Part shown: positions 5,413 through 56,011 of the stretch, in pieces
How positions within the stretch are numbered: the stretch's first letter is position 1
Layout of the letters: each line of letters opens with the position of its first letter
Assembly: GCA_013265495.1 (NCBI GenBank)
Contig: MU057990.1
Span: 1 to 64,000, forward strand
Reading direction: 5' to 3'
DNA length: 64,000 nt
DNA from: Vicugna vicugna
Taxonomy: Eukaryota
The notes under the pieces: generated by a model
Database searches by the model: none
Seen by the model: only the letters and a program-made list of their open reading frames with translations
What the model was told of the DNA's origin: nothing
Translations under genes and position numbers: made by a program

Positions 5413-6061
5413 CCAGTGGTAGTTTGAGGCTCTAGAAGTTGACGTAAGTGAACTGTATTTTACAAATGAACTGAGGAAGGCTCGCAATGCTGTGCAGAAA
5501 GCCACACAAGGGTGGGAGAGCCAAGGTTGGTATCCAGGTTGCCTGACTTTCAACTCAGGCATTTCTGCACTATCCCTATCAGTTGCAGCCTGCAGCCGGT
5601 CCCCTTCTGGTCCCAGAGGCCAGGCTCATGCTTTGTTTCCAGAGCCAAGCCCCTGTCTCATGTCCTTGCATCTAAATCTATGACTTGCTTCTTTACCTAA
5701 CACCAAGGTGCTCTAGAACAGGGGTCAGCCTAGTCCCCACTATTCCCCTCTCCTGACACATTCCTCACCCCACTTCTTGCTGGAAACTGCTGAGTCTGGC
5801 AGCCTAATGGGAAAAGGTCTAGGAGGGTAGGCATTTGGCATTGTGATGTCCCTAAGCGGGTGGGAGTTCAAGGCTAGGATTCTAGTTTCTGGCAAGGACT
5901 GGGATGCACAGTGTGGGGACAGCTGTCCACTTCTTTAGACACGTGATCACCAACTGCTTCTGCTTCTGCCGTCAGGCAGGGCAGCTGCCACATACAGTAA
6001 ACACTGCAGCCCTGTTCCTTCTAAAGACCGTCTTGAAATATAATGGATACACCAGAATACT

Positions 6062-11124: not shown

Positions 11125-11768
11125 TGTTATGGGTTGAATTGTGTCCTCTCCAAAAAAAGATATGCTTAAGTCCTAACCTCCAGTACCTCAGAATGTGATC
11201 TTATCTGGAAATTGGATCTATTTAAAAAAATTTTTTTTCAGAGGAGAGGTAATTAGGTTTATATATTTATTTATTTGATTTTTCAGTGGAGGTACTGGGG
11301 ATTGAACCCAGGGCTTCAGGCATGCTAGGCATGCACTCCACCACTTGAGCTATACCCTCCCCCACTGGAAACAAGATCTTTATAGGGGTAATCCAGCTAA
11401 AATGAGGTCATTGGTATGGGTTCTAATCCAATATGACTTTTATGTCCTTGTAAAATGGGGAAATTTGGACACTAGGACAGACATGTATGGAGGGAAGGCA
11501 GAATGTAGACACAGGAAGAACACCACGTGAAGAAAGAGGCTTGGAGTGATGCATCTACAATCCAAGGAATTGTCAAAGATTGCTGGCTACCCTCCAGAAG
11601 CTAGGAAGAGGCAATGAAGGAATCCCTTAGAAGTTTCGGAGGGAGCATGACCCTGCCAACACTTTAATTTCTGACTTCTAGCTTCCAGGACTGTGTGACA
11701 ATAAATTTCTGTTATTTTAAGCCACTCAGTTTGTGGTGCTTGTTACAGTAGCCCTAGAAAACTAATTC
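11125..11768 (+). mobile_element. MLT1B/C-like solo LTR interrupted by a SINE
   Basis: Begins tgttatgggttgaattgtgtc; ends aataaatttctgttattttaagccactcagtttgtggt...gccctagaaaactaat. Confidence 0.85.
11221..11363 (-). mobile_element. tRNA-Ala-derived camelid-type SINE
   Basis: ggaggtactggggattgaaccc...cttgagctataccctccccc; nested in the LTR with a degraded TSD (ctggaaa...gatct). Confidence 0.9.
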
Positions 11769-17370: not shown

Positions 17371-17858
17371 CATTTTTTCCTTGTTTGAAAAACAATGTAA
17401 AACATTCCTCTGACTATATATATATATATAATACAATTCTTTGAATAAAAGCTAACTGCTGAGAAAATCCTTGTTTGTTCTATAGCTCAGGGAATAGATT
17501 TGACAGCTCTTAACTTGACCAGCCAAGTGTAACAGTGTGGAGTTTAGCAAAAGGCTCTGAGCAATTAAAGCTGCAGAATAATTACCAGCCATCAGAGCTT
17601 CTGATGGAGCCTAGGCCTTTGCACTGTCATCTTTGATCTGCCCTCAGGACCTAATGTTCCAAGCACTTAGCACTTTGGGGATGAGAGTGCAGTTTTCATT
17701 AGACCACCTTCTCTGAAACCTTCCATGGCTACCAATTGCTTATAGAATAAACCCAAATCACTTAACATGGCATTCAAGGCCCTATGCTATTTCCCAACTC
17801 TAAATTTCAACCCAGTCAGAGGGCTTATACAGCATAACGTTTAAGAGTTCAGGCTTTA

Positions 17859-18266
17859 CAGAAAGAGAAAGAAAAATACCACATGATAACGCCCAGATGT
17901 GGAATCTAAAAAGAAAAAGAAAAAGACAGAAATGAACTTATTTACAAAACAGAAACAGACTCACAGACATAGAAAACAAACTTATGGTTACCAAAGTGGA
18001 AAGGGGATGGAAAGGGTTAAATTGGGAGTTCGGGATTTGCAGATACTAACTACTATATATAAAGTAGATAAACAACAAGGTCCTACTGTATAGCACAGGG
18101 GAACATATTCAATATCTTATAGTAACTTATGGTGAAAAAGAAAATGAAAATGAATATACGTATGTTCACATATGACTGAAGCATTGTGCTGTACACCGGA
18201 AATTGACACCACATTGTAAACTGAGTATACTTCAATTTAAAAAATAAATAAATACTTAAAAAATAA
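17859..18266 (+). mobile_element. 5'-truncated young L1 3'UTR with TSD
   Basis: gtggaatctaaa...acagactcacagacatagaaaacaaacttatggttacc...ctgtacaccggaaattgac...A-tail; TSD agttcaggcttta at 17846-17858 and 18267-18279. Confidence 0.9.
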
Positions 18267-18676
18267 AGTTCAGGCTTTAGATCTTTAGCCAGATCTAGGA
18301 TTGAATTTTCTGCTTTGTCTCCATTTCAACAAACCCTAAACTATTTGTCTTTCCAAGGCAAGTTCACCTGTCATTTCTTCTCACCCTGCCTTTCCCAGAT
18401 CCCTATCAGTAAGCTTTAAACTGTCTTTCCCCTAAATTCCTGCATTGCTGTGTCTCTGCCGCTCTCACAGCATGCACTTACACTTTCTCATAGAGTAGAT
18501 TTTTTGGTAATGACCTCCCTAACAAAATGTTAGCTCCACGAAGGTAAGACCCTCCCAGAGTGCACAGCATATTGCTCACACATGCCAGGCTGATAGCAAA
18601 TATTTTGGGAATTGAATGAATAAACGAATAGATGAATTTCCCTTTGAACAACCACCTGGCCAATACACACATGCTG

Positions 18677-32489: not shown

Positions 32490-33800
32490 AAAGATTCAAT
32501 CATTTGAAAAATAAAACCATGAATGTACTGGGAGAAAATATAGAACACTTTTATAATCATGGATTAGGGAGAGCTTCTTAAACCCCAACAATACATCCAA
32601 AAGCCATAAAAAATGTCAATCAAACTTGACAGCAGAAATGTTAAAACTTTCAGCAGACACCATGAACAAAGTTAAAACACATATCAACAGGTTAGATTAA
32701 ATAGTTACAACATACAACAAATTGAGAGTCATACATTATAAAAAGCACATAGAAAGTATTAAGAAATACTCCAAATTCAGTGGCGGGAGTGGTGTAGCTC
32801 GGTGGTAAAGTGCATGCTTAGCATGCAGGAAGTCCTGGATTCAATTCTTAGTACCTCCATTAAATAAATAAATAAATAAACCTGATTACCTCCCCTCCCC
32901 TCCTCCAAAAAACTAAAGAAATATTCAAAATTCAATAGGAAAATGGATAAAGGATATGAGTCAATTCATGAGTAGGGAAATATAAATGGCTCATAAACTT
33001 CTGAAAAGCTGTTCAACTGCATTAATTAAATAAATCCAAATCAATACAACAATGCATAGTACGTTTGCCTATTAGCTTTGCAAAGTTAAAACTGACTAAT
33101 AGTATCCTGTTATGGCTAGTGTGGGAAGATGGCACTGACACTGTTATAAGGGTGAAAATTGGTACAGCCACATTGGAAGGACGATTTTGCCTTCCGTATC
33201 AACATGTAAATTGTCCACACACTATGATCCAGTGGTTGCATTTCTAGGACTCTAACCTACAGAAGCGGCACAAGTACACAAAGATATTTGCACAACAATA
33301 CTCATTGCAGCACTATTTGATAGCCAAATGTAGAAACAACCAAATGTTTTTCAATAGGGAAATGGTTAAATAAATGATGGTGCAATACTGTGCAACTTTT
33401 AAAATGAAGTAGATCTGCATTCTGCTGTCATGAAAAGATAACCAGGAAGTGATATTAGGTAAAAAACAAACTTGGGGAACAATATGTGAACTGTGATCCT
33501 ATTTTTATAAAGAATATTTCTTGAATGTATCTAGCATATATGTAGCTATATCTATCATAATGTGCCATAAATGTATCATAACGTATAGCTAGCTCTGTCT
33601 CTCCCTCTTTTCTCCCACACACACACACACCCCCCTAGAATACACACAGATACTCACATTTACCAAAAAAATGTCTGGAATGTAACATAGCAAATATGAA
33701 CAGTTATTACCTCTCATGAGTGAAACATTCACTTTTTTTGTACATGTTTGTAGGGTAACAAATATGAGTTAGTTACAATGAACAAGCAAAGCATTGTTTC
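32490..33800 (+). mobile_element. Ancient L1ME-like ORF2/3' fragment
   Basis: caccatgaacaaagttaaaa...aaaatggataaaggatatga...aaattggtacagccac...cattgcagcactatttg. Confidence 0.7.
32782..32915 (+). mobile_element. tRNA-Ala-derived camelid-type SINE
   Basis: gtagctcggtggtaaagtgcatgcttagcatgcagg...gtacctcca(taaa)n cctgattacctcccc; imperfect TSD aagaaatactccaaattca / aagaaatattcaaaattca. Confidence 0.88.
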
Positions 33801-35177: not shown

Positions 35178-35605
35178 CCTATCTTAGGTCAGGTTCCCTG
35201 GGAGCAGAGCCTGAGACAAGGATCTGGGTTCTTGTCATTGACTGAAGGCGAGCTCTCAGGAAAAAGGAAGAGAGAGAAGCAGGCTAGGGCAGGGAATGGA
35301 GCTAAGCAAGAATGTGGCCTCATTCAGAGTCTAGCTTGGCCAGATCCCTAAAGCTGTGAAGCACTTAATGACACCACAAGGTGATCCCATTCTGAAGCAA
35401 GGGGACTGTGTCAGTCAGTCATTGGCTGCAGGCTGGGGGAGGGGAGGTGGGCAAGCTGCCCACATGGCATGGTGCCTAACCGCTGGGCCAAGGCGGCTCT
35501 CCTTCCTGAGGGTAATTTTCCGGAGCAGGGGGAGCAGCTCTGAGCCTTTAGCAGCCCACGTTCACAAAAGGGGACCTGGGCCAGGCACCAGCAGGGGCCA
35601 TCACA
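35178..35605. mobile_element. LTR16/LTR33-like ERVL LTR
   Basis: tcttaggtcaggttccctgggagcagagcctgagacaagga...gcaggctagggcaggg...cagtcattggctg. Confidence 0.6.
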
Positions 35606-36018
35606 CACATTAATCTGTTTCAAGGCCTCAGACCCTGGCTTGTACTTGTCCTTTATCCTGGGATATCACTGCCTCTCCTTTCCTTCACTGGTATCACCTC
35701 CTCTAGGAGGCTTTCCCTGATAACTAACTGGCTACAGCCTACCCTTCTGGGCTCGAATAAAACCCTGTGCAACTCCCTCTCTAGCTCAGCATTTACCATA
35801 TTGTGTTGAAAGTATCTGTTTAGATAACCAGCCTCCCCCAGGGGAGTAGAAGCTCAGATGAACAGGAACCATGTCCTGTTCATATTTTTGCCCCAGGCAC
35901 TTAGCCAAGTGCCAAGCAGAGCAGGCCTAAGTAAATATCTGGGGAACTGAACACCAGGTAAGTGACTTCTTAGGTGGTGGTGTAAGGCCAGCCCGCTCTG
36001 CTATCAAGAGCTCTTCCA

Positions 36019-36928
36019 GGGTTGTGGTGGGGAGGGTATAGCTCAGTGGTAGAACACATGCTTAGCATGCACAAGGTCCTGGGTTCAATCCCCAGTACCT
36101 GGGAATCTAAAAAAAAAAAGGATACAAATGAATTTATCTACAAAACTGAAATAGACTCACAGACATAGGGAACAAACTTATGGTTACCAGTGGGTAAAGA
36201 GGGTGGGAAGGTATGAATTGGGATTTCGGAAATTGCACCTCTCTATCTTGATTGTAGTATTGGCTCCATGGGTGTATATATCTATCACAATTCATCAAAT
36301 TATACATTTGAAATATGTGTAGTTTACTGTACAGGAACCATGCCACAACAAAGGTGTTAAAAATAAAAAATTTTAAAAATAAATAAAATAATTTTTTAAA
36401 AAGCAAGTAGGTTCTAGGAATAGGGGTACAAAACAATCAGTCAGTCTTGGGAGGACTATACTATGTTGGGTAAGCTGTGAGATTTATGGATGGTATCTCG
36501 TTTCCTCTGTGATTAAAAAACACTGGGGGATGATTTCATTCAGTTAACAATCATTTATTGAGCAGATACTATATGTTCTTGCTTGGCATGTAGGTATGCA
36601 ATAAATATATTTTAAAAATCCTTAAAAAATACTAAACCAACCTTACAAAAAAAGTTAAAGAGTCTTCTTTAAGTGAAAAAATAAATGGTTACAACAAAAT
36701 AAGAAAATACAGGAATGGAAAAACCCCACTGGTAAATTCAAATATATAGTAAAGACAGTGGATCAACCAGCTAAATAAACTAGTACTAAGATTAAAAGAC
36801 AAAAATTGTAAAATCAATTATAACTACAATAAACAGTTAAGGGATAGGAATGAAGATACCAAATATGACATCAAAAACACAAAACGTGGCAGGGGGAGTA
36901 AAAAATGTAGATTAAAAAAAATTTTTTA
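36019..36928 (+). mobile_element. Composite retro-insertion: SINE head plus L1 and other fragments inside one 13-bp TSD
   Basis: aagagctcttcca at 36006-36018 and 36929-36941; SINE head 36029-36100; A-rich end. See findings. Confidence 0.75.
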
Positions 36929-37406
36929 AAGAGCTCTTCCATCCCCATGTAGTGGGGGAGGGGGAACAGAAAAACCTGGTAATATATTTGGAACAAATTA
37001 AGTGATTTATGATAAATAAACTAGCTGTAGAGGTTCTTGCTACACCTAAGTACAAATACAGTTCTACCATTGTTGCATTTCAAAGGATATGTTTTAACAT
37101 GTTTTAAATGCTGTCAATTGAAAAAAACAGTCTTAAGGAGAGGGGAGAGTTATGAAGTCTATGCCTTAGCAGGACTAGAAATGTTTCACTTTTTTGCTGG
37201 TAGAAAGAGCTTGGTGTAAGGGATGTTGAAGAATTTTCCACAGCACTAATCCTCCCCAGAAATTAAAAGCAAAACTAGAGGTATGGCAGTACCATGGGCC
37301 AACTAGGATGCAAAGCGCCTAAACCAAGAGGAGTGAGATGAATTTGACTAATATCTACAAGGTGAAAACTCACCAGTACTTGATGGCCTGGTGGATATAA
37401 GTGACC

Positions 37407-37795
37407 CATAAACTTCTGAAAATCTGTTCAACCAATTAATTAAATAAATCCAAAGTAAAACAACAATGCATAGTACATTTGCCTATTAGCTTTGCAAAAT
37501 TAAAACTGACTAATAGTACCTGTTATGGCTAGAGTGTGGGAAAATGGCACTGACACACTGTTATGAGGGTGAAAATTGGTACAACCACATTGGAAGGATG
37601 GTTTTGCCTTCCCTATCAACATGTAAATTGTCCACACGCTATGATCCATTGGCATTTCTAGGACTCTAACCTACAGAAATGGCACAAGTGCTTAAAGATT
37701 ATTTGCACAATACTCATTGCAGCACTATTTGATAGCCAAATGTAGGAACAACCAAATGTTTTTCAATAGGGAAATGGTTAAATAAATGATGGTGC
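37407..37795 (+). repeat. Local duplicate of 32992-33383
   Basis: Collinear, roughly 90% identical by eye from cataaacttctgaaaa to aataaatgatggtgc. Confidence 0.92.
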
Positions 37796-51289: not shown

Positions 51290-52264
51290 TTATTGGTAGA
51301 AGACTAAATCTCTGGGCAAGGGGGTAAGTGCTATGTTCAGATTAGACACCAGCTGGGAGATGACTGGAGGGAGTTCTGACAAAGTTATGGAGTCCTGTGT
51401 GTTCTGTATCCTAAACCTCTCTTGTATCCATTAATTCTTACTTGCTCCTCCTTTGTTTCAACTTTCATCATCCCTCAGCCGGACCACTGTTACAGCAGCC
51501 ACCCAGATGGTCTCCCTAATTCTGGTCTTGCTCTCCACTGACTCTTTACCCTCATTGCCACTAGACTGATTATTCTTAAAATAAGATAAAGTAAAAAAAA
51601 AAGCATTCCCCTACTACAAATTCTTCAATGCCTCTGCATTGTATTTCAGAATTAACTCCAACCTCCTTAGCCTGGTCTTTCTGACGTCATTCCATTCTCT
51701 TCTCCTGGACCTCAGGTTCCAGCCACAGTAAGAACTTAGCCCATTGTCTCCAAACTCACTATGCCTCTTGCTTCTGTGCCGTTACATATGTTGTTCCCCC
51801 TGCCTGGGACACACTCACAGGTTAGCCTGATGTGCCTCAACTCTTCATTCTATATTCTCAACAGTCATCCTGCCCTTCTGCCCACCCCTACTCCAAACAG
51901 TGCAACAACTCCCACTGTGACCCCCTTAACACTTTGTCCAGACTTTAAGTCTAGCAATTAGTATGTTATATGGTGATTAGCAGTGTTCATGTAAGCCTCC
52001 CCAGCGTGAGCTCTTTAAGGACTCCACATTTATATGCCAAGTACCTAAGAGAGTACCTAGATTTTAGTAGCTACTCAAGCATTATGGAAGTGTGTAAGTG
52101 ATCCAGTTCTCCCTCCTCTCTCCCATTTCCACTGCTCTTCCCCAGAAGATGGTCACTTTAACAATTTGATGTGTTTAATGTTTGTTACAGCTAGCGTTTT
52201 CACTTAGGTTCAGGTTTATAACATGGTAGAACTGTATTTTTACAAGACCAAAGTATATGTGTTC

Positions 52265-55312: not shown

Positions 55313-55908
55313 TAATGAGCTGCTTTACTTTTCCTATCAATCATGGTAGGACATTCTTTTTAATAACTTCTCAGTTGTCTTTTCTCATTATGATATATGT
55401 CCTGGAATCATGTTTTTACAGCAAATTATCTATTAATAATTATGCTAGTATTTAAAGTTGCTTTTGATATAACTGTTTGGTACTAGAGCAAGCACTCAAT
55501 GAAAGAAAATTATTACTTCTTGTGTTACCATTTTTATTATTTCTCTGACTTTTTTCAGGTGAATATCATGGTGTATTGTTTGTGCAGCACTTTGGTCTTT
55601 GATGTCCCACAGTTATGCCCCTACTCAGGGAAAGATGTGGAGTTGTTGGAAGTCTCAGTTGACAGAGCTTGAGATAGACTATTGTCTGTGTGTGGGGGGG
55701 AGTAGAGGCTGAGGACCATGGCCGAGGCTGAGTAGGCCCTGTAGGAAGAATGGTGGGCTTGAAAAAGCAACAGGGTGGTCTTTGGCTACCTAGTGGTCTC
55801 CAGAAACTGATATGTTATCTTCACTTCATCAATTTCCTGGTAAATGTTTTTCTTGTAGGGAAAAAAAGACATTCAGTGTACTCCACAGTAGCCATTTAGT
55901 TTCTTTTT

Positions 55909-56011
55909 TAAAAAATTTTAATTCATTTTTTAAACGGAGGTACTGAGTATTGAACCCAGAACCTCCTGCATGCTAAGCATATGCTCTACCACTGAGCTAT
56001 ACCCTCCCCCA
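55909..56011 (-). mobile_element. tRNA-Ala-derived camelid-type SINE
   Basis: ggaggtactgagtattgaaccc...gcatgctaagcat...ctctaccactgagctataccctccccc; perfect 17-bp TSD ccatttagtttcttttt at 55892-55908 and 56012-56028. Confidence 0.92.

Follow-up and report, generated by a model that had tools for sequence, protein, structure and literature searches.

A 910-base retroposon mosaic within one 13-bp target-site duplication in Vicugna vicugna, possibly assembled in a single LINE-1-mediated insertion

Parts of the mosaic and its target site

In a 64-kb stretch of Vicugna vicugna DNA, called the window below, we found a 910-base insertion in which the head of a tRNA-derived SINE, the 3' end of a LINE-1 (L1) element, a segment copied from another locus and an internal L1 fragment follow one another ahead of a short terminal tail (Table 1). 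The whole composite is bounded by one exact 13-bp direct repeat, read here as a target-site duplication (TSD). Everything between the two copies of this repeat is repeat or copied DNA and the DNA outside them is unique in the genome, searches of the 2.03-Gb genome with the left flank (35300-36030) and the right flank (36925-37395) having returned no other copy of either. The four parts share the sense orientation, are fused directly to one another and carry no TSDs of their own, in agreement with the first-pass annotation, which had placed a single TSD around the entire mosaic; its count of four captured segments is reduced here to three payload pieces (B, C and D) behind the SINE head.

Table 1. 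Features of the mosaic in window coordinates, with the divergence of each dated part
Feature	Position	Strand	Description	Divergence
Left TSD copy	36006..36018	+	AAGAGCTCTTCCA, 13 bp; exact string search	
Leader	36019..36028	+	gggttgtggt, 10 nt between TSD and SINE start	
SINE head	36029..36101	+	tRNA-Ala-derived simple SINE, vic-1-like; ARAGORN and alignment with 16 other copies	3/72 (4.2%) from family consensus; family mean 8.9%, 13 copies
B	36102..36390	+	5'-truncated L1 3' end: last 2-3 ORF2 codons, whole 3'UTR, A-rich tail	8.7% from family consensus; family mean 7.0%, 22 copies
B tail	36359-36390	+	Degenerate, A-rich	
C	36391..36627	+	Copied segment: ~140 nt of non-repeat DNA and the first ~100 nt of an old dispersed repeat	8.1% between two copies, about 4% per lineage
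D	36630..36913	+	Internal L1 fragment, ORF1 C-terminal end and inter-ORF region; sense, truncated at both ends	10.0% from family consensus; mean 14.1%, 28 relatives
Terminal tail	36914..36928	+	A8 (36914-21), T6 (36922-27), A (36928); adjoins right TSD	
Right TSD copy	36929..36941	+	AAGAGCTCTTCCA, 13 bp	

The string AAGAGCTCTTCCA occurs exactly twice within the 64-kb window, with no further site even when one mismatch is allowed. As proposed in the first-pass annotation, its copies stand where a TSD is expected, the left one just ahead of the SINE 5' end and the right one directly after the terminal tail, so that they mark the two transitions from unique to repeated or copied sequence. By itself, a direct repeat of 13 bp is not beyond chance: the window holds five non-simple exact direct pairs of at least 13 bp spaced 100-2000 bp apart, and 30 Markov shuffles averaged 3.1 such pairs and reached at most 6. 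The TSD is credible because of its position (the transitions, the nick site and the tail) and not because of its length. When two fixed 30-bp windows were drawn at random from the real window, they shared a 13-mer in 181 of 3,000,000 draws (a rate of 6e-5), and the positional chance stays at ~0.01 even if 100-200 candidate window pairs are allowed. Two other exact direct pairs, of 18 bp at 6044/6350 (306 bp apart) and of 15 bp at 51761/52402 (641 bp apart), are probably TSDs of other retroposons.

The bases before the left copy read ...tatc and the TSD begins with AAGAG, which gives a bottom-strand nick site of CTCTT/GATAG, a pyrimidine-rich site preceding the AAGAG start. The L1 endonuclease consensus is TTTT/AA, with which this site agrees only in part. 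Together with the A-rich 3' end that adjoins the TSD, the insertion site fits an L1-endonuclease-like target.

At the 5' end of the mosaic, ARAGORN placed one of its five tRNA-Ala(AGC)-like calls for the window at 36032-36103, and the start of the SINE consensus, GGGGAGGG, is found from 36029 on; the consensus drawn from 17 aligned copies of the family begins with GGGGAGGGTATAGCTC. The first-pass annotation had seen a tRNA-Ala SINE head 10 nt after the left repeat, and had described it as lacking its normal tail. Both statements hold, since the family alignment puts the end of the SINE part at about 36100/36101, in the 3' acceptor strand, 2-3 nt short of the end of the tRNA-like unit. The usual SINE tail is missing and ~50 nt of the normal SINE middle are absent; the head has no TSD of its own within 330 bp and passes directly into L1 sequence at about 36101. 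The other SINE copies for which a TSD could be detected, likewise as first described, have closely spaced TSDs (93-149 bp) with one exception at 268 bp. The head is 81-90% identical to eight other copies in the window, and a 28-nt pattern of the SINE 5' end, with at most 3 mismatches, gave 109 genomic matches against none for a reversed control. On these comparisons, the head can be assigned to a vic-1-like, tRNA-Ala-derived simple SINE with many dispersed copies; the name vic-1 is our presumed label, given by comparison with genome copies and not with the published consensus.

Ten nucleotides separate the left TSD from the SINE start. Among the six SINE copies with a credible TSD, this gap measures 2 nt in four and 4 and 6 nt in the others, and two further copies show a gap of 3-4 nt. 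The final 2-4 nt of the leader are normal at the 5' end of this SINE, and the first 6-8 nt read as unexplained filler. The idea that the leader is a feature of a SINE subfamily was dropped, a pattern search having found no recurrent leader; the similarity of the two closest leader matches came from their own target sites, and the similarity on contig C5765 was loose. A 7-nt reverse-complement match (CCACAAC) between the filler and segment B, noticed by eye, was judged to be chance (~0.1).

Relatives, sources and copy number

Segment B was described in the first-pass annotation as two pieces, a young L1 at 36101-36237 and an older L1M-type element at 36238-36400. It is a single L1 3' end: the alignment runs unbroken across 36237/8 in all 22 related loci, and a multiple alignment identified a 22-bp internal deletion as the only change at that point. 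Relatives extended upstream of the start of B in 12 of 13 cases, and one of them (L005) has an upstream ORF whose product aligns with the C-terminal 65 residues of human L1 ORF2p (residues 1209-1273; PDB 8sxt, E 2e-12), the PDB search having settled the L1 identity of this ORF after a Pfam search with it gave nothing. Because the relatives run on upstream and this ORF corresponds to the ORF2p C-terminus, B starts in the last 2-3 codons of ORF2 and covers the whole 3'UTR. The window stretch 17901-18041 matches B at 81% but belongs to another L1 family, the common part being the first half of the 3'UTR only. This stretch lies in an L1 3' end at 17846-18267, of a different and probably younger family, which is flanked by the exact 13-bp repeat agttcaggcttta and is an ordinary TSD-bounded, 5'-truncated L1. 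At another locus (L024, G000:C10010, ~1775-1830), the A-tail of a B-family L1 runs into a long-form SINE tail (AAATAAATAAACCTAATT...CCCC) with no SINE head; this could be a further chimera, or else a SINE that lost its 5' end and lies in the L1 tail.

For segment D, homology continued on both sides in all five relatives tested, for 245 bp or more upstream and 1 kb or more downstream, and in one of these relatives (L007) an ORF overlapping the homologous stretch hit the L1 ORF1 dsRBD-like domain PF17490, passing the curated cut-off (E 5.7e-7). This bears out the earlier reading of 36631-36912 as the end of L1 ORF1 with the inter-ORF region. The variant hexamer AGTAAA is found at 36897-36902, 11 nt ahead of the end of D; the L1 homology stops at 'gtagat(t)', and the A8-T6-A beyond is non-L1. 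Both B and D belong to L1-protein-encoding elements, the family of D being clearly older than that of B. Any model consistent with the TSD requires an old genomic L1 fragment, contained in some transcript, as the source from which D was copied. Nothing closer to B than 83% was found among the best 40 of 4033 candidates, and nothing closer to D than 84% among the best 40 of 1062; these missing close donors are an unexplained gap for every model.

Segment C has one other genomic copy, at C10560:2401035-2401262 on the minus strand (both of the two candidates were scored). Of 241 alignment columns, 203 are identical, 18 are mismatches and 20 are gap columns, which corresponds to 8.1% substitutions. 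The last ~100 nt of C belong to an old dispersed repeat, which we take to be MIR-like and which runs on past the break in the C10560 copy. Among 38 other genomic matches to this repeat, 29 cross the point where C stops and 8 begin after it. Because the repeat continues in this way, both in the C10560 copy and in these 29 matches, alignment identifies the window's C, demonstrably in our view, as a truncated copy derived from the other locus. C ends 19 nt after an AATAAA hexamer (36600-05) and is followed by 3-5 A residues that neither the C10560 paralogue nor L1 explains. These two traits offer a modest basis for a transcript origin, the chance of ending 10-30 nt past such a hexamer being ~0.1-0.2, given two of them in 228 nt. 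In the first-pass annotation, 36401-36630 was unique or L2-like sequence ending in AATAAA and an A-rich run; its end stands as described, and its body turned out to have one paralogue and to finish in ~100 nt of a dispersed repeat. The origin by serial 3' transduction proposed there gains no support from the C10560 paralogue, where the DNA upstream of the stretch homologous to C is non-L1, but a lost or unassembled source that delivered C by 3' transduction is possible.

The terminal A8-T6-A has parallels elsewhere. The L1 copy of L005 ends in A7-T8-A followed by a 13-14-bp TSD (AAGAGGCAGGTCCA), and a SINE at window position 56009 shows the same pattern. More generally, an A-run (5-8), a T-run (5-8) and 1-3 A directly before a TSD recur at L1 and SINE 3' ends, for instance at L005 (1773-1790), in the tails of L028, L010 and L002, and at window positions 11238, 3865, 42331 and 55900-56010. 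In 247 kb of sampled sequence, the motif A5+T5+A was present at 12 distinct loci, at least 7 of which are SINE or L1 3' tails, and an AAGAG start is common to two TSDs behind such tails. In a SINE, the pattern could be a Pol III terminator plus an added A; in an L1 it needs another cause, which could be uridylated tails or a priming quirk, and it is unexplained there.

The mosaic was searched for as a whole and at its joints. The full 936-bp query gave 43 matches, all of them partial and confined to single parts (among the best 40 of 7478 candidates). A 90-nt probe across the SINE/L1 joint revealed no sibling in 39 other hits (the best 40 of 408 candidates); the sole hit that extended past the joint was a SINE of the ordinary kind, complete with tail and flanking repeat. 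With a probe spanning the junction of C and D, no sibling copy appeared among the six candidates, all of which were scored. The mosaic is single-copy in 2.03 Gb among the scored hits, and hence not a composite retroposon family, which answers the first-pass suggestion that it would represent a camelid composite family if found in several copies. It has no sign of function and founded no family. On contig C3700, a 58-nt match of 81% identity begins within the A-rich run, 12-15 nt ahead of the point where C meets D. Locus L027 (G000:C8359:1267585-1267960, minus strand) has a SINE directly upstream of a B-family L1 3'UTR, with three ATGTGTCC-like motifs lying to the left of, between and to the right of the SINE and the L1. 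It was considered as a sibling and rejected: by eye it is an ordinary sequential pair, in which the SINE is complete and tailed and the L1 keeps a repeat of its own. The SINE seems to have entered the left TSD of the L1, an arrangement that contrasts with the window's fusion, where the SINE tail is missing. Beyond the right flank, a 305-bp stretch (37395-37700) recurs in direct orientation 4.4 kb upstream, at 32980-33285, with 89% identity, and has no other genomic copy.

In addition, 20 of 24 public sequencing runs, carrying four organism labels and coming from eight studies, contained 0.83-0.88 of the words sampled from 35500-37500. These shares suggest that most of the stretch is present in independent data sets. 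Because they exceed the ~0.55 that, by our inference, would hardly be surpassed if the 910 bp were absent, the mosaic itself is probably shared by several closely related organisms.

Possible origins of the mosaic

One L1-mediated event with three to four serial template switches may have made all 910 bp, and we consider this the best explanation, with a probability that we put at or just under one half. Formation by L1, as advanced in the first-pass annotation, is in line with this choice, which draws on the exact and correctly placed TSD with unique DNA beyond it, the single orientation, the direct fusions without inner TSDs and the copied nature of C. The upstream parts end at plausible RNA 3' ends (the A-rich tail of B, the AATAAA with 19 nt of C, and the SINE 2-3 nt short of its tRNA-like unit), the downstream parts are each 5'-truncated, and the joins carry short A-runs, with just A6 between C and D. 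Chimeric retrocopies produced by template switching, or by prior RNA ligation, during L1 reverse transcription are described with this pattern (PMC2104539; bioRxiv 10.1101/2025.02.02.635956).

We infer that the parts arrived jointly and from RNA templates, with switches in the following order. The L1 endonuclease would have nicked the bottom strand at CTCTT/GATAG, and reverse transcription would have started on an A-tailed RNA bearing the old L1 fragment D. The enzyme would then have switched to the 3' end of a polyadenylated transcript of the C10560 locus (C), from there to the A-tail of an L1 3'UTR RNA (B), and finally to a SINE RNA, copied as far as its 5' end. A few nucleotides would have been added at the 5' join, and repair would have produced the 13-bp duplication. 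Several points speak against such a single event. Three to four switches exceed the tripartite maximum in the available part of the source on such elements (PMC2104539), B and D would need transcripts of old genomic copies, the 3' end of D depends on a weak variant hexamer, and the tail of B is degenerate, as in an aged genomic tail.

The ages of the parts can be read in either direction. The SINE head (3/72), the TSD (0 differences in 26 positions) and C (about 4% per lineage) fit one age, and B (8.7%) and D (10.0%) seem of greater age than the head (4.2%) and C, but the dating relies on small counts, on samples picked by query similarity and on consensus sequences that mix subfamilies, so that age differences among the parts are only suggestive.

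The main rival, which we hold less probable than the single event, is that a bipartite chimera of the SINE head and the L1 3'UTR, of the type of Alu/L1 or U6/L1, was inserted first, with the TSD and the A8-T6-A, and that C and D were inserted later into its A-rich tail, where their own TSDs, consisting of A only, would be invisible. A-rich tails are preferred targets of the L1 endonuclease, B seems older than C, and this course is made up of documented steps, with a single template switch, a well-documented process; the terminal A8-T6-A, which is like the tails of the same L1 family at L005, L028 and L010, could then be the original end of B. However, the six A residues between C and D leave scarce room for a poly(A), a TSD and a leftover tail, and D, although of an older family than B, would have arrived later and would still need a transcript of an old copy from an unseen donor. 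A tail of ~40 nt would also have been hit twice more by unusual templates, namely the end of a non-element transcript and an internal piece of an extinct L1. It also speaks for the single event that C and D are not active elements, so that templates as rare as these seem unlikely to have struck one 40-nt tail on two separate occasions.

It is improbable that the locus is a DNA patchwork, in which a plain SINE with a 13-bp TSD was broken in its A-rich middle and B, C and D were captured as filler during repair, from cDNA or as templated copies; the same low estimate also covers the variant of an L1 insertion with a target-site deletion. Under this account the head and the terminal 15 nt could be the two ends of one SINE, with ~50 nt of its usual middle gone, and 4 of 20 sampled SINE copies do carry the A-run, T-run and A tail motif. 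The identical tail architecture occurs on L1 copies as well and is therefore not diagnostic of a SINE, no SINE middle is left on either side, and the shared orientation and poly(A)-type ends of the pieces are unlike random filler.

We give very little credence to a chance 13-bp match over a pile of independent old insertions and deletions. The pair count in the shuffles would accommodate such a match, but the repeat falls exactly on both transitions, at the low positional rate given above, and the site and tail are like those of other L1-mediated insertions, with inner parts that lack TSDs. Least probable of all is a Pol III read-through transcript of ~900 nt from the SINE head that gave rise to a propagating composite SINE family, for which the tRNA-like promoter region of the head and the T6 run at the element's end could be invoked, but T4 at 36371-74 and T6 at 36392-97 would stop Pol III, as the first-pass annotation had argued from the internal T-runs, and the genome holds no second mosaic or junction copy among the scored hits.

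If all parts did arrive in one L1-mediated event, a SINE RNA, an L1 3'UTR, the end of a non-element transcript and an old L1 fragment borne on a transcript would have been stitched together in a germ line, and the template-switch limit of the L1 reverse transcriptase would be extended from two to three or four. No L1 chimera on record would then be more complex, the printed cases being tripartite, and the mosaic would be natural evidence that ORF2p can jump in series from one RNA 3' end to another, among polyadenylated and Pol III RNAs of unrelated origin. The locus also calls for caution in repeat annotation, in which a TSD-bounded mosaic could pass for four or five old repeats that arrived independently.

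Comparison with known chimeric and composite retroposons

The SINE vic-1 is said to have been described originally by Lin et al. in 2001. In the available part of SINEBase (PMC3531059), it is a simple tRNA-derived SINE of camel. The head in the window shares with it the tRNA-Ala-like beginning GGGGAGGGTATAGCTCAG and the many genome copies with A-rich tails and TSDs, but the window copy consists of the head only, without an A-rich tail of its own and without a TSD of its own hugging about 90-150 bp.

L1 3' transduction, reportedly treated by Moran (1999), Goodier (2000) and Pickeral (2000), has in common with the mosaic an aged A-rich L1 tail followed by non-L1 DNA that ends soon after AATAAA. 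The mosaic differs from it in that the paralogue of C has no upstream L1, the L1 part is a 3'UTR only, and a further L1 fragment lies behind. SVA is a multi-copy, propagating family. The mosaic likewise combines unrelated repeat pieces and appears to have been mobilised by L1, but it is single-copy among the scored hits. SVA-type composite retroposons are also named in the available part of the preprint bioRxiv 10.1101/2025.02.02.635956.

The same part of that preprint (bioRxiv 10.1101/2025.02.02.635956) describes Alu/L1 and U6/L1 chimeras, in which a copy of a Pol III RNA is fused to a 5'-truncated L1 3' end within one TSD. As far as this account goes, the mosaic is like them in its sense copy of a small RNA, its direct fusion, its L1-endonuclease-like site and the lack of later propagation. 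The Alu and U6 parts described there are usually full length, whereas the window SINE is without its own tail, and the mosaic has two further non-element pieces after the L1 tail.

Closest in complexity are tripartite elements such as mouse B2-U6-L1, with 15-16-bp repeats, and WEIRD-MgSINE-MGL of Magnaporthe, with direct repeats of 14-16 bp overall, according to the available part of PMC2104539. They share with the mosaic the head-to-tail RNA copies and the direct repeats, which that part of the source attributes to repeated template switching in LINE reverse transcription (PMC2104539). The tripartite elements presented there have three parts, with the LINE 3' end last (PMC2104539). Compared with these, the window mosaic has four parts and a 15-nt tail, its L1 3'UTR stands second from the 5' end, and its last part toward the 3' end comes from the interior of an old L1. 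The mosaic is probably a rare but known kind of LINE-1 by-product, and may be an unusually complex one.
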